A stretch of DNA of 64,000 nucleotides, taken from the IMG/VR virus record IMGVR_UViG_3300044698_000419, positions 1 to 64,000 of that record. One strand, 5' to 3'. The DNA comes from a virus. The notes beneath the pieces are model-generated. The model was not told the DNA's origin and made no database searches. It worked only from the letters and a program-made list of their open reading frames with translations. Of the stretch, positions 4,001 through 57,265 are shown piece by piece; position 1 is the stretch's first letter; every line of letters starts with the position of its first letter. The translations under genes were made by a program, and so were the position numbers.

Positions 4001-6158
4001 AGTCGGCCGCCGCCACGATCACGTCGCCCACGCCGACGTCCCCGGCGGTGAGCAGCACATCCGGCCCGGCTTCGCCGTTGACGGTCTGCACAGCGGCTTC
4101 TCCGGCCGTCGTGGCATCCGTGATGAGGCCGACCAGTTCGAGGGCGTCCAGCAGGCTCTGGAGGGCCGCACCCGTAGTGCGCTCGCCAGAGACGGTCTGC
4201 CTGCCGACGGGAACCGCGCCGTAAAGGCCGATCTGGTTCGCCACACCGTCGATCGTGTGCACGGTCCCGTCGAAGGGCCCGTCGCCGAAGACCCACTTTC
4301 CGGAAGCGTGGGCCGTGAAGGTGCCGGACTCCAGCCGCAGGTACGTGTGCTGCGTTCCCAGGAAGTTGACCAGCTCGAAGACCGACAGAAACAGGTCTGC
4401 GCCGGACGCGTCGAGGTCGAGGGAAGCGCCGGACTGCCGGAAGCGGTACGCCTTCGCGTCCGTCTCGCCGATCAGGAGGTCGGTGTTCAGGAAGGCCAGC
4501 ACGCCCGCGCTCAGACGCCGCAGGAAGGTGTCTGCGGGGCCGGTGCCGGGGCCCCACTGCATCTCGCCGTCGATCAGCCTGCGCCAGAGATCGGCCACGC
4601 TGGTAGCGGAACGCGAGGACTGGGCGGTATCGGCTTCCGCGTCCATGACGGTGGAGATCTCGCCAGTGAACTCGGCACCCGAGAGCAGCGCGTACCCACT
4701 CAGATCGACCGAGGTTCCGCCGCCGGGCCCGGACCCGAACTTGCCCGCCTTGATGATCGAAGCCTGCGTGATGTCGGAGAGGTCGGTGGCCGATCCCTTC
4801 ACCGCGAGATATCCCAGGAGGATCGCGTTGCCGGGGAGTGCGGGGTTCGTCGCGAAGGGAGCGGTTCCGGCGGACGAAACGGCCTCGTCGAGCGTGGCGT
4901 AGGTCTGCTGGCCGTACTGGAGGACGTGGATCTCGGAGCCCTCGTTTGTGGGGAACATCCAGAGCTGGTGCACCACGGAGGTTTCGGCCGTGCCGCCGAC
5001 GGGGGTCAGCGTGCCGCCGCTGTCGTAGTTTCCGACGTCCACGGTGACCGTGGAGTCGAGGTAGGGCAGCTCGGAAGTGCGCAGGGCGTGCACCCAGGCG
5101 GCGGGCTCCTCGCCGATCGTGTTCACGATGTGCGGGTTCGACGTTTCCATGCCGCCGTCGAAGTGGTTCCAGCCCCGGGAGAAGACCTGCCCCGAACTCA
5201 CGTCGAGGGAGAGGTTCACGCCGTTCGGGCTCACATCGTTGCCGGTGATGCCGAAGGCTCCGATGGCATCCATCAGGTCGTAGAGCTGATTGACCGGATG
5301 CCCGGCGATCGTGGGAATCGACTGCGCCAGGAAGATGGATCCGTTGTCCTGGGCGACCATGCCGATCACGAGGAAGTTCCGGCGCTCTTCGGCGGAAGGC
5401 CGGGTCTCCTGCTGATAGACGGCCTGGTCGGCATCCATGAGAAGCCAGGTGATCGTGCGTTCCTGGGCCACCGCATCGAGCTGGACGGTGATCGGGGCGG
5501 TGACCTCGACCTCCTGGACCGTCACGGGGTCGGTGAGGTAGTTGACGATCCGGCCCGAGAGCGGGTTGATGATCACGGCGAGCGGATCGGTGCCGCTGGG
5601 GGAGATGTCTCCGCCCTCGGAGATGCCCGTGTCCAGGCCGCCGTCGATCCCCGCCTCGCCCTGCGGGCCGACGAGGGAGTCCAGCCACTCTTCCTCGGTC
5701 CCCTCGAAGCCGTTCTCGACCGCGATCTCGTAGGCCGAGTCACCCGTGGCGCCGGGATCCCCCTGGGGCCCCGTGGGACCCGGGACGGGGACGTAGTCCA
5801 CGCCGCAGATGTCGACCGAGAGCACATCGGTGATGTCGAGCGCGCCACTGCCGACGGGGACCTCGAAAATCCCTTCTTCCCAGTCGCCGCCCACGAACTG
5901 GCGCAGCCGCCACAGTCGGCCCTCTTCGGGAAGAACGTCTTCCGCGTCCGTGCAGACGACGTCCTCGGAGAAGCTGCCCTCGGCGTCGAGATTCACCTTT
6001 CCGCCGCCGAGGAGAATCTGGTTTCCGCCCTGATCGGTCCATCGCTCGGGAATGGGCTCGAAGATGACGTAGTGGTCACCGCTGGTTCCGTCGTACGGCT
6101 CGCCCGTAACCGGGTTGGTGTACGTACCGGTGACGGTCCGTTCGGTGGGCAGGGCCAT
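1056..6158 (-). CDS. Large tailspike/tail-fibre-like protein with collagen-like segment and two pectate-lyase-like beta-helix domains
   Basis: GPTGPQGDPG collagen repeat, SAYEIAVENGFEGTEEEWL motif, two VNGEAG-xxxxx-DVG linkers, two beta-helix cap motifs (ADYVCTGTDD; GAVGDGVTDD). Confidence 0.85.
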   Translation of the reverse strand: MALPTERTVTGTYTNPVTGEPYDGTSGDHYVIFEPIPERWTDQGGNQILLGGGKVNLDAEGSFSEDVVCTDAEDVLPEEGRLWRLRQFVGGDWEEGIFEVPVGSGALDITDVLSVDICGVDYVPVPGPTGPQGDPGATGDSAYEIAVENGFEGTEEEWLDSLVGPQGEAGIDGGLDTGISEGGDISPSGTDPLAVIINPLSGRIVNYLTDPVTVQEVEVTAPITVQLDAVAQERTITWLLMDADQAVYQQETRPSAEERRNFLVIGMVAQDNGSIFLAQSIPTIAGHPVNQLYDLMDAIGAFGITGNDVSPNGVNLSLDVSSGQVFSRGWNHFDGGMETSNPHIVNTIGEEPAAWVHALRTSELPYLDSTVTVDVGNYDSGGTLTPVGGTAETSVVHQLWMFPTNEGSEIHVLQYGQQTYATLDEAVSSAGTAPFATNPALPGNAILLGYLAVKGSATDLSDITQASIIKAGKFGSGPGGGTSVDLSGYALLSGAEFTGEISTVMDAEADTAQSSRSATSVADLWRRLIDGEMQWGPGTGPADTFLRRLSAGVLAFLNTDLLIGETDAKAYRFRQSGASLDLDASGADLFLSVFELVNFLGTQHTYLRLESGTFTAHASGKWVFGDGPFDGTVHTIDGVANQIGLYGAVPVGRQTVSGERTTGAALQSLLDALELVGLITDATTAGEAAVQTVNGEAGPDVLLTAGDVGVGDVIVAAADSRNASGADYVCTGTDDHLIIQQAIDLVDAATGKGTVRLLDGTFWLGATLNIPDGAGLELRGSGWGTILKLSPAVDDYAITFSGLETRARFSHFTIDGNLTGQTTGPSGGIWAPGAVECVFQHIHFTACLSTGLFLGPQTGPVFGHNNQVLHCLFDNAMDSTGEGRGVFIQSNDENVILASDFQFLGGSGAAGAAGIYDQAGTQTVMGCNFVGGGNSLPAIRVQDASATKVTGCNFDGVGGDAVFLAATNCVIEGNTIFGVGAIGTAGTYSGIHLEFAATGNLISDNSISSHTVDGAARSLIREEAVGDSGDNLIVGNMLITNGTLTVGALDLNAPGTVARSNFGGGADGDPIVTSDMVGAANGVASLDAAGTVPPEQLPATLVTSVNGEAGDVTLDAADVGALDQATADTLYSAIDSLYFNALDHGAVGDGVTDDAAAINTILTNSPAGSVIALPAKPYAIGVPLVVHPGKTLMGIRSDLMTVTGLYEPGVVIMPTAGFTGVAAIRFLDQATGGYAAISGEQRVLNVTLDGGNVAAGVDGIQAKGNIQNVALRDVTIRRFPNSGIYCGLEGGIAPYSWRMHRVMLDNNEAHGMFGERMVDLTMVDCQAIGNFANGFMLQNAANSQIIGCRAEWHGNHGFYLSGDWGDGQGSGGLLMSACSTDRNGFNGVFIDASGTPPLVISNLMTRRDGRNGGAGGGGYAGVAVNSAATPVIIGDWTNFPGVDDGGAGTSSPEYGGSITDSAYVQIDNAYLHAATAGLNDGGGNGALRLGSNITYVTGATSAPVRNLTQSHLAETWAPQDVGLLAWSSDPANCQSNTAFSGIGTMRVTAIVLHNPQTVGKIVWYAGGYAGGLLTGSWAGIWSADGTTRLGGVADLTAPGSEPAVVDDVGGAMHYAPLDAGPTYLPAGIYMVAWRHVYTASPADGPQILQYENSAGAPPNTLALNTVKRFGYNTTPGATLPTSLPTINTDGGNRFWVALAT

Positions 6159-25812: not shown

Positions 25813-25885
25813 AGGGACGTAGCTCAATTGGTAGAGCGCTGGTCTCCAAAACCAGTACATGGGGGTTCAAGTCCCTCCGGCCCTG
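25813..25885 (+). tRNA. trnW: tRNA-Trp(CCA)
   Basis: Cloverleaf; anticodon arm CTGGT-CTCCAAA-ACCAG; GTTCAAGTC. Confidence 0.93.
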
Positions 25886-25931
25886 CTGGCTTCCGGGATT
25901 TCATCCCCCCCGATATCCCGGAAGCCGTTAA

Positions 25932-26006
25932 CGGAATGTGGCGCAGTTTGTGTAGCGCGCTCGCTTCGGGAGCGAGAGGTCGCGAGTTCAAATCTCACCA
26001 TTCCGA
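25932..26006 (+). tRNA. trnP: tRNA-Pro(CGG)
   Basis: CTCGC-TTCGGGA-GCGAG; acceptor CGGAATG/CATTCCG. Confidence 0.92.
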
Positions 26007-26175
26007 CTGGATCCCAGGAGTCGTACTTCTTTCCCGAAGGCGTCGTCCACAGCTCCTGGGATCCGAAGTTCCCGCGCCGCTGACGGTAGTCGGAAACGCA
26101 GGTGTGGCAACCTGCACAGAGAGCATCGCCCGCCGGGCAGGCGGGTGGTCGGTAGCAGAAAGGCGATGCTCTCGC

Positions 26176-26248
26176 GCCCTTGTAGCTCAGTTGGTAGAGC
26201 GCTTCTTTCGTAATGAAGATGTCGCAGGTTCGACTCCTGTCGAGGGCT
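26176..26248 (+). tRNA. trnT: tRNA-Thr(CGT)
   Basis: CTTCT-TTCGTAA-TGAAG; GTTCGACTC. Confidence 0.92.
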
Positions 26249-26394
26249 CGACGGTGCACGGTTCGGTCTCAGAAACCGACGCGTGTATGCCGATGGGAAT
26301 CCTGGTTGGACAGACCCGGGTTTTCGGTTGGCAGACCCCTGGTGAAACGCTGTCCCGGGAAGCCAGGGGTTCCGGTAAAATAGGGACGGAGAGG

Positions 26395-26508
26395 ATGAGA
26401 AAAGTGTTGATGGACATCCTGGATGCGTGGTTGCATCACTGGGGATGGCTGTGGATGGTCGTCGGACTCTGTGGGTTCGTCGTCGTGGCAGCCGTTTCCA
26501 ACAACTGA
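26395..26508 (+). CDS. 37-aa single-TM peptide inside tRNA cluster
   Basis: MRKVLMDILDAWLHHWGWLWMVVGLCGFVVVAAVSNN with GGAGAGG RBS. Confidence 0.4.
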   Translation: MRKVLMDILDAWLHHWGWLWMVVGLCGFVVVAAVSNN

Positions 26509-26514
26509 ATACGG

Positions 26515-26587
26515 GCGCCCTTAGCTCAGTTGGCAGAGCAGTGGATTCTTAATCCACGTGTCACTGGTTCAAGTCCAGTAGGGCGTA
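26515..26587 (+). tRNA. trnK: tRNA-Lys(CTT)
   Basis: GTGGA-TTCTTAA-TCCAC. Confidence 0.93.
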
Positions 26588-26669
26588 CTGTCGCATTCGG
26601 ATGGCTTTCCATGGACGGTATGATCCGATGCGATCGGTCTGAGATTCTGGATCGGGGTCTCAGGCTGAA

Positions 26670-26742
26670 TGGGGTGTAGCTCAGTGGAAGGAGCGCCCGA
26701 CTACGGATCCGGAGGACGGGAGTTCGAATCTCCCTACCCCAA
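26670..26742 (+). tRNA. trnR: tRNA-Arg(ACG)
   Basis: Loop CTACGGA; one anticodon-stem mismatch; GTTCGAATC. Confidence 0.88.
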
Positions 26743-26765
26743 CGCAATAAACGAACGATAAACGA

Positions 26766-26841
26766 GCGCCTGTGGAGGAGTCTGGCCGTCCTCACCGCCC
26801 TGTCAAGGCGGATATCGCGGGTTCAAATCCCGTCAGGTGCG
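26766..26841 (+). tRNA. trnD: tRNA-Asp(GTC)
   Basis: CCGCC-CTGTCAA-GGCGG. Confidence 0.93.
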
Positions 26842-26987
26842 CTGGCTTTGGAGAACGTCCGACGGAGTCCGTCATCCCCGAGATGGCTATCCGATGGGCG
26901 GTGAGTGAGCCAGGTGAGTCCATGCCAACCTCGATCCAGGAGGCACTTGGATGGCGGCCCCTGCCTAACCGAAATCAAGGGGTGCAA

Positions 26988-27061
26988 GGATCTGTAGCTC
27001 AGGTGCGAAGAGCGCTCGTCTGAAAAACGAGAGGTCGCTGGTTCAACTCCAGCCGGATCCA
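26988..27061 (+). tRNA. trnF: tRNA-Phe(GAA)
   Basis: CTCGT-CTGAAAA-ACGAG. Confidence 0.92.
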
Positions 27062-27161
27062 CAGGTCGGACGGTAAGTCGTTGACGTCGATCCACTGTGG
27101 CAGGTGGGTCATTCGCGGCGAAAGCGGCCCGTGCGCGGAGTGTTTGCCGTCCGACTGCCAT

Positions 27162-27233
27162 TCCCCTGTAGTTTAACTGGCAGAACACCGGCCTCTGGAG
27201 TCGGGAATCTTGGTTCAAATCCAGGCGGGGGAG
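27162..27233 (+). tRNA. trnQ: tRNA-Gln(CTG)
   Basis: CCGGC-CTCTGGA-GTCGG. Confidence 0.92.
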
Positions 27234-27261
27234 CCGGTCGAAAAGGAGAGGAAGGGAACAA

Positions 27262-27468
27262 GTGAAGTTCACTCTGGAGCTGGACCTGTCGAGCGAAGAG
27301 TTCGCCAACCGCAGTAACAGCGACATGGTCCAGGGTGGAAGCATCGGCTTCTACCTGACCGAGGCCGCGAAGCGCATCGACGGCCACGCGATGGCGGCCG
27401 GAGAGAACGGTAAGATCCTTTCGGATGACGATGACACTGTCATCGGATCATGGAGGATCGAGCCTTGA
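27262..27468 (+). CDS. Hypothetical protein
   Basis: Purine-rich RBS; codon bias. Confidence 0.65.
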   Translation: MKFTLELDLSSEEFANRSNSDMVQGGSIGFYLTEAAKRIDGHAMAAGENGKILSDDDDTVIGSWRIEP

Positions 27469-27481
27469 TCGACGAGTTCAA

Positions 27482-27554
27482 TCTCCTGTAGCTCAATCGG
27501 CAGAGCGCCGGATTGTTAATCCGGATGTTACTGGTTCAAGTCCAGTCAGGAGAG
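27482..27554 (+). tRNA. trnN: tRNA-Asn(GTT)
   Basis: CCGGA-TTGTTAA-TCCGG. Confidence 0.93.
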
Positions 27555-27644
27555 CGTGTGCCGACGACACTATGCAATCCTTTGGTCTGAAAAACCGGGG
27601 AGAGCCGCAGTCGGTGGTAAAGGGCCATGGTGCGCACCGTGGCC

Positions 27645-27742
27645 GCTCGGGAAACGGAACTCCGAGTCAGAGCCTGGAAAACGGGGCACTCGGAATGGCC
27701 TTGAGGGGACGCCTTCAGCAGGTTCGAAGCCTGCCCCGAGCA
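27645..27742 (+). ncRNA. tRNA-like element (acceptor + T arm, non-canonical middle)
   Basis: GCTCGGG/CCCGAGC-A acceptor; GCAGG-TTCGAAG-CCTGC T arm; no normal D/anticodon arm. Confidence 0.55.
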
Positions 27743-27839
27743 CTCAGATGTGACCGCATCGAATCTGGAGGGATCGAGATGTTCTCCACCGGCTTCACCT
27801 AGGTCCGCGAAATTCGCGGCCCTAGGAGGATGAATTCCG

Positions 27840-28235
27840 ATGGGCAAGACGGCACATCACCTGAAGGGCAAGTTCGACACGCGCGAATGGCCCGACGGGT
27901 ACATGATGTACTGGCGGGGACGGCCCGTTGTCCCCGTACGTGAGCACACCGTCCACGACCTGCGCTACAGCGCTGCGGAACTCCGCGACGCGGAAGAACA
28001 GGGACGTCGGGCCCGGCCCAGGAAGGTGCGGCGCACCGCGCGCTGGTGGACCTACACCGGGGCCTGGACGCCGAGTTCCAGCCGGACCTACTGGGCAGGC
28101 AAGAACGAACGCGCCAACCGGCGTTACGTGAAGAGCCAGCTCGACGGAGGACGCCGGACCAAGGGCGAACTCGAACGAAGGCTGTACGAGAAGGCCGAGA
28201 GGAAGCCTCGCCGGATGCTTTACGACATCTGGTGA
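27840..28235 (+). CDS. Basic hypothetical protein
   Basis: RBS AGGAGG. Confidence 0.6.
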   Translation: MGKTAHHLKGKFDTREWPDGYMMYWRGRPVVPVREHTVHDLRYSAAELRDAEEQGRRARPRKVRRTARWWTYTGAWTPSSSRTYWAGKNERANRRYVKSQLDGGRRTKGELERRLYEKAERKPRRMLYDIW

Positions 28236-28244
28236 GGGAGGAAA

Positions 28245-28318
28245 GCTCCTGTAGCTCAGGGGATAGAGCACTGGTTTCCTAAACCGGGTTGTCGCAGGTT
28301 CGATTCCTGTCAGGAGCA
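28245..28318 (+). tRNA. trnR: tRNA-Arg(CCT)
   Basis: CTGGT-TTCCTAA-ACCGG. Confidence 0.92.
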
Positions 28319-48448: not shown

Positions 48449-48817
48449 TCAGGAAGCGGTGGGCGCCGTACGGGACTTGATCTCATATTCGAGCTGGCCG
48501 TTCTCGACGAACTCCAGCGAGTCCTTCAGGTGCTTGACCGACTCTTCGCTCACGGAGGACGCCACCGGGTGCGGCAGGCCCTCCCGGAACAGGAAGTAGA
48601 TCTCGAAGGCGCGGTTGTAGCCAGGGGTCTCCCAGACTTCGAGCTGCCGACGGTGGTTCCCCACGTGACGGAAGCCGGTCGCCTCCAGGACGTCCTTGCA
48701 GTACCGGACCAGTTCGTCGTTGCCTCCGAGGACGTTCAGGACCAGCTCTTCGCTGGCCTCGTCCTCGTTGTAGTTGACCTGATCGAGCGTGAAGCTGATC
48801 GTTGTCCCTCGGTCCAT
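48449..48817 (-). CDS. Hypothetical protein
   Basis: RBS GAGGAG. Confidence 0.65.
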   Translation of the reverse strand: MDRGTTISFTLDQVNYNEDEASEELVLNVLGGNDELVRYCKDVLEATGFRHVGNHRRQLEVWETPGYNRAFEIYFLFREGLPHPVASSVSEESVKHLKDSLEFVENGQLEYEIKSRTAPTAS

Positions 48818-48827
48818 CGTCTTCTCC

Positions 48828-49028
48828 TCAGTCGTCGATCGCGGGAAAGCCGGTCTTCCTGGCGGCAACCCTGCGCCGCCAGACCCTCGCCGCCAGCCTC
48901 AGCCTCAGCTCCTTGCGTGCAAGGCCCAAGAACTGGACGGCGAAGGCGTCGGGAGCCGGAACTTCGTTCGCAACGGCCCAGTCGTAAACCTCGTCCACGG
49001 TGGGCTGATCCTTCTCAGCCACATCCAT
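48828..49028 (-). CDS. Hypothetical protein downstream of hammerhead 1
   Basis: RBS GAAGGAG. Confidence 0.6.
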   Translation of the reverse strand: MDVAEKDQPTVDEVYDWAVANEVPAPDAFAVQFLGLARKELRLRLAARVWRRRVAARKTGFPAIDD

Positions 49029-49042
49029 CTCCTTCCGAATCA

Positions 49043-49112
49043 CTGACGGCCATCGTCAGGCAGCACCTCATGCTGCGACCCCACTGGCTGTGGGGTTTCG
49101 GCCTCGGGTCAG
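49043..49112 (-). ncRNA. Hammerhead ribozyme (type II), HHR1
   Basis: CUGAC-CCGA-GGCC GAAA CCCCAC-AGCCA-GUGGGG UC GCAGCA-UGAGG-UGCUGC CUGACGA U GGCC-GUCAG; predicted cut 49077/49076. Confidence 0.9.
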
Positions 49113-49113
49113 G

Positions 49114-49329
49114 TCAGCCGCCGAGCTTCTTCAGGCCCTCCGCGATGGCGGCCAGGTAGTTCACCTGGGCGATCTGCGCCAGGGTGCCGAGGTCCAGTTC
49201 GGAGACCTCGTAGCCCTCCTCCTGGGCAGCCTTGAACTGCTCCCCGATGACCCCGTTCAGGGCGTCGGCGGTCTGCCGGGCGATCTCCAGGTAGTTCGTC
49301 GGGTCCGTGATGACGGGAATACCGGCCAT
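49114..49329 (-). CDS. 71-aa helical hypothetical protein flanked by two hammerheads
   Basis: RBS GGAAAGAGG; strong codon bias. Confidence 0.75.
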   Translation of the reverse strand: MAGIPVITDPTNYLEIARQTADALNGVIGEQFKAAQEEGYEVSELDLGTLAQIAQVNYLAAIAEGLKKLGG

Positions 49330-49356
49330 GGCTTTTCCTCTTTCCGATTCTTCTCA

Positions 49357-49426
49357 CTGACGGCCATCGTCAGGTGCGGCACCACCGCACGACGTCGCTG
49401 GCTGCGACGTTTCGGCCTCGGGTCAG
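49357..49426 (-). ncRNA. Hammerhead ribozyme (type II), HHR2
   Basis: CUGAC-CCGA-GGCC GAAA CGUCGC-AGCCA-GCGACG UC GUGCGG-UGGUG-CCGCAC CUGACGA U GGCC-GUCAG; predicted cut 49391/49390. Confidence 0.9.
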
Positions 49427-49713
49427 TTCTTCTCGTCGGCGGGCCCGTCCTCGGCGTAGTCCGGGTCCATCCAGTTCGCCGCCTGGATGGCGCCACAGGC
49501 ACCGCACTCACCGCCGTCGGCGGAGTGCTCGTGGTACTTCCCGAACTCGCGCCGGATGCGCTCCGCCCACAGGCGACGCACGGCCAGCTCGTCCTCGTGG
49601 TGGCGCAGGAGCTTGTCCAGGATCGGACCACCACCCTCGGCCTCGGTGAGACCTTGCACCACCAGCTCGGCGAGTCGCGCCGTCTCCCCCTTCTTCGGCT
49701 TCTCTCTGATCAC
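49423..49713 (-). CDS. Hypothetical protein
   Basis: GTGA coupling; stop codon lies inside HHR2 stem II. Confidence 0.6.
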   Translation of the reverse strand: MIREKPKKGETARLAELVVQGLTEAEGGGPILDKLLRHHEDELAVRRLWAERIRREFGKYHEHSADGGECGACGAIQAANWMDPDYAEDGPADEKN

Positions 49714-49997
49714 GATCCCTCTCCTTCCTCCGGCGGCAGGCTCGGGAGCCTCGGGGACAGGCGCGTGCCCAGTCCCCATCCCTGAATCCTGCGGTTCTGC
49801 TGCATGTCCTCGGCGATCATGCTGACAAGCTCACTCCGGAAGTACTCGCTCCAGAAGCGGGTGAAGTCCTCCGGGTCCTGATCGAAGTTCTCGATCATCT
49901 TCTCGGTGCTGGCGTACGCCAGCGGGATACCGAACAGCTCCAGGATGATGACCTCGTGTCCGTTCTCCTGCACCTTGCCGATGCGGATCACGTCCAT
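49710..49997 (-). CDS. Hypothetical protein (paralog pair)
   Basis: GHEVIILELFGIPLAYA. Confidence 0.65.
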   Translation of the reverse strand: MDVIRIGKVQENGHEVIILELFGIPLAYASTEKMIENFDQDPEDFTRFWSEYFRSELVSMIAEDMQQNRRIQGWGLGTRLSPRLPSLPPEEGEGS

Positions 49998-50299
49998 CAC
50001 TCGCTCCCGAAGGGACCGAGGCGGTACACCTCGCGGCCGGTCGGAGACTCGGTACGCCACTTCACGTAGTCGTGGTCGTAGCCCTCGGTCAGCGACTTGG
50101 CCAGCAGACTCCCGAGCCGGGCCGAGAAGGTCTCCTCCCAGTCCTCGGTGTCCTGGTGGCCGGACTCGAACTCGTGGGCGTCGGCGTACAGGACCGGGAT
50201 GCCCAGGATCTCCAGGACGTAGACCTCGTTGCCCTTCTGGTCCGTAGCCAGGCCGACCCGGAAGAGTCCGCGCACTTCGTTCACGTCGATCTGTGCCAT
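49997..50299 (-). CDS. Hypothetical protein (paralog pair)
   Basis: GNEVYVLEILGIPVLYA. Confidence 0.65.
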   Translation of the reverse strand: MAQIDVNEVRGLFRVGLATDQKGNEVYVLEILGIPVLYADAHEFESGHQDTEDWEETFSARLGSLLAKSLTEGYDHDYVKWRTESPTGREVYRLGPFGSE

Positions 50300-57192: not shown

Positions 57193-57265
57193 CTGACGGC
57201 CATCGTCAGGCGGGGCTTCCGTTCGCCCCGCGACCCCCTCTCAGGGGTTTCGGCCTCGGAGTCAG
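57193..57265 (-). ncRNA. Hammerhead ribozyme (type II), HHR3
   Basis: CUGAC-UCCGA-GGCC GAAA CCCCU-GAGA-GGGGG UC GCGGGGC-GAACGGAA-GCCCCGC CUGACGA U GGCC-GUCAG; predicted cut 57232/57231. Confidence 0.9.

Follow-up and report, generated by a model that had tools for sequence, protein, structure and literature searches.

Candidate type II hammerhead ribozymes bracketing a single gene in a relative of Streptomyces jumbo phages

Background

[quoted passage not shown] Cleavage was shown in vitro for three of these prophage clusters and in E. coli for one, and the authors proposed that it processes transcripts into mRNAs the length of an operon or of a single gene. They considered that spliced or circular products might arise, but detected neither (PMC3088659). 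Processing of polycistronic transcripts was still the suggested role in a review published in 2019 (PMC6765202).

In this report, we analyze a locus of similar layout in an IMG/VR record of an uncultivated virus. The record is 102 kb long and is estimated to be ~54% complete; its first 64 kb are the stretch analyzed here, hereafter called the window. A preliminary description of the locus knew of no case in an actinophage. We likewise found no literature on hammerheads in Streptomyces phages or actinobacteriophages; however, both the gene-flanking layout and the idea of circular or spliced products were published in 2011 (PMC3088659). The arrangement of one gene between two hammerheads has therefore been known in phages since then, and what is new is its occurrence in phages of the Satis/Kela group, where it is unannotated.

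Results and discussion

Layout of the locus

The pair of hammerheads and the surrounding genes lie on the minus strand, as does a third, solitary copy. Their features, with positions in the window, are as follows.

57193..57265, minus strand: HH-C, predicted solitary type II hammerhead of the same subfamily (RF02276, 24.1 bits; R1, 67.6 bits)
57232/57231, minus strand: predicted HH-C cut, between these two nucleotides
49423..49779, minus strand: upstream gene, 118 aa, homologous to Kela gp250 and Satis gp249
49357..49426, minus strand: HH-A, predicted type II hammerhead (sequence, RF02276 match and MFE fold)
49426..49422, 49417..49414 and 49413..49410, minus strand: distal stem II CUGAC, GGCC and GAAA of HH-A
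49391/49390, minus strand: predicted HH-A cut, between C17 (49391) and G1.1 (49390)
49373..49357, minus strand: core and 3' strand of HH-A, CUGACGAUGGCCGUCAG
49077..49390, minus strand: predicted released RNA, 314 nt (coordinates from the sequence, on the assumption of double cleavage)
49341..49336, minus strand: RBS of ORF71, AGAGGA
49114..49329, minus strand: ORF71 (protein P0001), the cargo gene, 71 aa (homology and conserved blocks)
49043..49112, minus strand: HH-B, predicted type II hammerhead (sequence and RF02276 match); 49043..49117 with both CUGAC copies
49117..49113, minus strand: first CUGAC copy of HH-B, containing the ORF71 stop
49112..49108, minus strand: second CUGAC copy of HH-B, pairing with the 3' GUCAG
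49103..49100 and 49059..49043, minus strand: GGCC and 17-mer of HH-B
49077/49076, minus strand: predicted HH-B cut, between these two nucleotides
48828..49025, minus strand: downstream gene, ~65 aa, homologous to Kela gp249

Read along the minus strand, HH-A and HH-B each consist of CUGAC, a 4-nt linker, GGCC, GAAA, a stem III hairpin and GUC, then the predicted cut, and then a 3' half made up of a stem I hairpin, CUGACGA, U, GGCC and GUCAG. In this type II architecture, stem II is open, whereas loops cap stems I and III. The two copies have the same stem II with its CUGAC/GUCAG extension but differ in stem III (GUCGC/GCGAC in HH-A, CCCAC/GUGGG in HH-B) and in stem I (GUGCGG/CCGCAC in HH-A, GCAGCA/UGCUGC in HH-B), both of which remain paired. 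The catalytic core (CUGACGA, GAAA, the A15.1-U16.1 closing pair and GUC) is present in all three window copies, and each of them has one extra U between A9 and G10.1.

Most of this agrees with the preliminary description. We confirmed on the sequence that the two hammerheads, spaced 314 nt apart, enclose only the 71-aa ORF and its RBS, and that stem II is identical between the copies while stems I and III are different. The cut positions that it gave for both copies coincide with the placement of C17 and G1.1 on the minus strand. Its account of the core holds as to the motifs, but overlooked the extra U. The predicted 314-nt RNA contains, from 5' to 3', the stem I hairpin, a CUGAC/GUCAG hairpin, the RBS, ORF71 and a stem III hairpin ending in GUC.

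Evidence that the motif is a hammerhead

RF02276 (Hammerhead_II) is by far the best Rfam family for each of the three copies, and each covers model positions 1-66. The scores are 32.9 bits for HH-A, 28.1 for HH-B and 24.1 for HH-C, with E values between 1e-4 (HH-A) and 3e-3 in short searches. A scan at Rfam gathering thresholds returned no hammerhead match, as all three copies fall below the RF02276 gathering score of 37. Three features account for the shortfall: CUGACGA is followed by a 2-nt insertion, stem I is short and the 3' tail differs from that of the model. With our own model, R1, the copies score 86.8 bits (HH-A), 87.6 (HH-B) and 67.6 (HH-C).

The 17-mer CTGACGATGGCCGTCAG occurs three times in the window, compared with 0.42 expected occurrences. 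An exact search for it in IMG/VR found 64 stretches, most of which are complete hammerheads of the same build, and hammerheads with this 17-mer extend to phages as distant as Burkholderia phages. To assess covariation, we aligned 48 hammerhead sequences, including relatives from other phages and solitary copies. The proposed pairs are standard in 94.5% of cells, as against 74% after shuffling and 33-53% with slid partners. Changes on both sides of a pair occur in 10 pairs (165 cells, compared with 66 after shuffling). The strong covariation resides in stems I and III; the GGCC/GGCC of stem II does not vary in any of the 48 sequences and consequently gives no covariation signal either way. In the cultured phage Satis, the same arrangement of hammerhead, gene and hammerhead surrounds gp248, and its upstream copy carries compensatory changes in stems I and III.

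No pseudoknot joining loop I to the 3' tail, the usual one in type II hammerheads, was identified in the window copies, whose 3' tail is taken up by the CUGAC/GUCAG extension. Complementarity between loop I and the linker amounts to 2.27 versus 2.07 bp, a small difference that is confounded by relatedness. A candidate pairing of loop III (AGCCA) with UGGC was dropped, because AGCCA is missing from the third copy and from many relatives. A loose pattern search of genomes gave a single match, which spans the end of an ORF and is coincidental.

The extra U has a parallel in the CChMVd hammerhead. For that ribozyme, an A10-to-U change at the same position increased the cleavage rate 3-4 fold (PMC3705267), so an extra U is compatible with activity and, by analogy, should not block it here. 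Judged by their sequences, HH-A, HH-B and HH-C are genuine hammerhead ribozymes, for which cleavage is predicted.

The solitary copy and the wider subfamily

HH-C is found 7.8 kb upstream of HH-A and HH-B and has stems unlike theirs, with a longer stem I and GAGA as loop III. Homologues of HH-C are present in Kela, Frankenweenie and a 187-kb relative, G001. The whole 102-kb record has exactly three hammerhead copies. The hammerhead model also matched, less well or only in part (24-33 bits), sites in the Kela record (162057..162142 and 5316..5358) and in G001 (65504..65589 and 93932..93974), which may be divergent or decayed copies.

Throughout the family, position is conserved as well as structure. 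The hammerhead starts 2-24 nt past the stop codon of the upstream ORF in all 52 family members, which makes it a precise intercistronic element, and in these 52 the next RBS and start codon lie within ~35 nt of its 3' end.

Genomic setting and cargo gene

The closest cultured relatives around the hammerhead pair are the Streptomyces phages Satis, Kradal, Quantum, EhyElimayoE, Kela, JustBecause and Frankenweenie. Their genomes are 185-200 kb long, and their DNA is ~80-83% identical to the window near the pair. All Satis genes of the homologous region are on a single strand, and a simple scan of the window detected neither promoter-like nor terminator-like sites from 48.5 to 50 kb. Elsewhere in the window, at 25813..28318 on the plus strand, is a tRNA cluster of at least 10 genes in 2.5 kb, as is typical of large Streptomyces phages.

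P0001 is 72% identical to a metagenomic protein, P0004, and 63% identical to the 72-aa Satis gp248. Conserved blocks across the three proteins form a pattern typical of a real protein. No family was found for P0001 in Pfam or PHROGs, and the protein atlas gave no informative neighbour. A search for homologous proteins yielded one relative besides P0001 itself, and a related-locus search with P0001 among viral contigs yielded none. An AlphaFold model consists of two helices in a helical hairpin, with low confidence (pLDDT 64). On the upstream side, the UGA stop of the 118-aa gene sits in the distal stem II of HH-A. On the downstream side, the ~65-aa gene begins 17 nt past HH-B, with a GUG start 6 nt after GGAAGGAG.

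Probable processing into a linear single-gene mRNA

The sequences compared above directly support the motif itself, the covariation of its stems, its constant position and its retention in relatives. The best explanation of these data, to which we assign a probability of roughly 0.7, is constitutive or nearly constitutive self-cleavage between cistrons that yields a linear 314-nt mRNA carrying one gene.

According to this model, HH-A and HH-B would be active type II ribozymes within a long, leftward polycistronic phage transcript, each beginning at the stop codon of one gene and leaving ~17-30 nt between its end and the next start codon. By cutting themselves after GUC, they would sever the transcript between cistrons and free ORF71 as a linear monocistronic mRNA of 314 nt. 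This mRNA would start with a 5'-OH, followed by the stem I and CUGAC/GUCAG hairpins immediately ahead of the RBS, and would end in the stem III hairpin and a 2',3'-cyclic phosphate. Such processing would uncouple the stability and translation of adjacent cistrons. Once the RNA is cut, the CUGAC of the core could pair with the 3' GUCAG and thereby favour release over religation. The model assumes fast cleavage at physiological Mg2+. The cleavage itself, the chemistry of the ends, the consequences for stability and the refolding are all inferred.

In folding models, the MFE structure of HH-A is the hammerhead fold (-35.0 kcal/mol). For HH-B, the hammerhead fold (-33.2 kcal/mol) is about equal to an alternative (-33.3 kcal/mol) in which the CUGAC of the core is paired with the 3' GUCAG. 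Re-association of the cleaved halves is modelled at a net -7.0 kcal/mol for HH-A and -2.4 kcal/mol for HH-B, and the 3' cleavage product alone is predicted to fold into two hairpins of its own. Overall, the modelled energies favour product release.

Several observations argue for processing: the intact cores of all three copies, their full-length matches to Hammerhead_II, the covariation of stems I and III, the Satis arrangement with its compensatory stems and the intercistronic position in 52 of 52 family members. The lack of a promoter-like or terminator-like site at 48.5-50 kb and the single-strand orientation of the Satis genes point the same way, as do the cleavage data of Perreault et al. 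on comparable prophage clusters, with which the 2019 review concurs. Against processing stand the Rfam scores below the gathering threshold and the failure to find the typical pseudoknot that joins loop I to the 3' tail.

Hammerheads as possible boundaries of gene cassettes

The hammerheads might instead act mainly at the level of DNA, with their conserved 12-nt and 20-nt blocks serving as direct repeats for recombination of single-gene cassettes. Units could then be inserted, deleted or swapped regardless of whether the RNA is cut, and this activity is compatible with processing. We consider it unlikely to be the main role of the motif. In Kela, Frankenweenie, JustBecause and G001, a single hammerhead separates the homologues of the genes upstream (49423..49779) and downstream (48828..49025) of the pair, and exactly one unit of hammerhead plus ORF71 is missing; in Kela, gp249 directly follows the single hammerhead. 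The Kela copy combines a linker like that of Satis A with stems III and I like those of Satis B, whereas the Frankenweenie copy is A-like throughout, as would fit crossovers in different conserved blocks. Moreover, the gene that follows HH-B is not the same in the window and in Satis.

Paired hammerheads with varied cargo, which the preliminary description had proposed to look for in related genomes, are seen around gp248 in Satis and in two further phages. In L046, a pair 242 nt apart encloses one 51-aa ORF, and in L048 a pair 621 nt apart encloses two ORFs. Both phages carry tandem units of a hammerhead plus a small gene with near-identical hammerheads, and those of L046 look like recently duplicated cassettes. 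At L046 6241..6620 and L038, the tandem units of an unrelated phage each comprise a near-identical hammerhead, the same leader and a small ORF that begins with MKV.

Were the motif purely a site of recombination, it would need neither the intact catalytic core nor the compensatory changes in the stems, yet both are strictly kept. In addition, contigs from four metagenome runs contain no DNA joint without the cassette at 48500..50000. A 47.8-kb contig has the cassette intact, and the sole joint reported in these runs is the third hammerhead copy mapping back. In one run, X1, a 356-nt contig of low depth has the last part of the upstream gene (to 49423) at its beginning and the start of HH-A (49431..49397) at its end; ~290 letters between these two ends, which together correspond to window positions 49397..49452, are unmatched. 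An abundant contig of the same run (depth ~400) ends at 49423. A variant in the X1 population may carry another unit at the HH-A junction.

Given the indel pattern in Kela, Frankenweenie, JustBecause and G001, hammerhead-bounded units appear to behave as cassettes in genome mosaicism, and the sequences fit ordinary recombination between repeats, or insertion by the same route, as a sufficient cause. Intercistronic processing remains our preferred account of the motif itself.

Possible conditional cleavage

A second alternative is that cleavage is conditional, the ribozymes being translation-coupled or slow switches rather than constitutive cutters. A ribosome terminating at a UGA inside CUGAC would melt stem II and so occlude the ribozyme. 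All three window copies, like 24 of the 52 family members overall, do have the UGA stop within CUGAC, and the active and alternative folds of HH-B are iso-energetic in the model. Perreault et al. also raised regulated cleavage of phage hammerheads (PMC3088659). The remaining family members, about half of the total, have UAA or UAG beside GGCC and no upstream CUGAC extension, which indicates that the overlap with the stop codon is no defining feature. We regard conditional cleavage as quite improbable compared with near-constitutive processing.

The proposed circular mini-mRNA

The preliminary description proposed that the excised 314-nt RNA is circularised through a chimeric hammerhead built on the shared stem II and is religated by the hammerhead or by RtcB. 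The product would be an exonuclease-resistant circular mini-mRNA, and the outer fragments might also join, skipping ORF71. In window terms, the predicted junctions are ...GUGGGGUC/GUGCGGUGG... for the circle and ...GCGACGUC/GCAGCAUGA... for the skipped product. We judge this course of events very unlikely.

The ends of the 314-nt RNA are complementary, as claimed, and the conserved layout in Satis and the chemistry of hammerhead ends, which suits religation or RtcB (PMC6765202), would both be in keeping with a circle. In the folding model of the 314-nt RNA, the end-joined chimeric hammerhead is only 2.5 kcal/mol above the MFE and is thus possible in principle, but its stem II pairs have a probability of just ~2%. 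Association of the circle ends is likewise modelled at a net of just -1.0 kcal/mol, in competition with the CUGAC/GUCAG hairpin of the 3' product; the corresponding value for the skipped product is -7.0 kcal/mol.

The identity of stem II, which had been taken as a hint of circularisation, carries no signal specific to the pair. All 48 family members, solitary copies such as HH-C among them, have the same GGCC/GGCC, and its invariance in unrelated phages makes it a trait of the subfamily. A search for rtcB in the 102-kb record and in the Satis and Kela genomes found none. Circular and spliced products also went undetected in the comparable clusters of Perreault et al. (PMC3088659), and ORF71 ends in an ordinary stop codon, so nothing special would be gained from a circle. 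Nor do the single hammerheads of Kela and Frankenweenie match the chimera of stem III(A) and stem I(B) expected from a fixed splice at the RNA level. Taken together, the invariant stem II, ~2% end pairing, weak re-association and lack of RtcB in three genomes leave the circular mini-mRNA unsupported. The fullest version of the idea is likewise very unlikely. In it, a translatable mRNA with a single gene is produced as a circle by an actinobacterial DNA phage, the invariant stem II would allow a ligation-competent ribozyme to form from any two copies, and the units may also be shuffled as cassettes.

Comparison with known systems

The extra core nucleotide links the window copies to the CChMVd (+) hammerhead, which has one at the same position and tolerates U well there (De la Pena and Flores 2001, as summarised in PMC3705267). 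The viroid ribozyme is of type III and naturally has A as its extra base, whereas the window copies are type II with U.

Retrozymes and viroid-like RNAs resemble the locus in having a unit of a few hundred nucleotides between two hammerheads, with ends able to rebuild one (PMC7761336). However, they are non-coding RNAs of eukaryotes with type I or III hammerheads, form abundant circles and spread by reverse transcription or rolling-circle replication (PMC7761336). The window pair is of type II and has a conserved protein gene as its cargo within a DNA phage operon, with no reverse transcriptase or ligase in evidence.

With RF02276, the copies share a full-length match, a common core and the same order of helices, but their scores of 24-33 bits lie below 37. 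As a result, routine annotation misses this subfamily with its extra U and GGCC stem II, which spans phages from Burkholderia to Streptomyces.

The closest likeness is to the clusters of Perreault et al., in which same-strand type II hammerheads also lie between the cistrons of phage operons and bracket one gene of varying identity. The window subfamily differs from those clusters in the extra U after A9, in the invariant GGCC of stem II, in the extension of stem II by CUGAC/GUCAG over an internal loop and in having no evident loop I to 3' tail pseudoknot. The hammerhead-bounded indel between close relatives suggests that the motifs, in addition, delimit cassettes in phage mosaicism. New, too, is the host group: gene-flanking hammerheads are here extended to Streptomyces-type jumbo phages of the Satis/Kela group. 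Because Satis and related phages are in culture, the role of phage hammerheads can be studied there in a tractable system.
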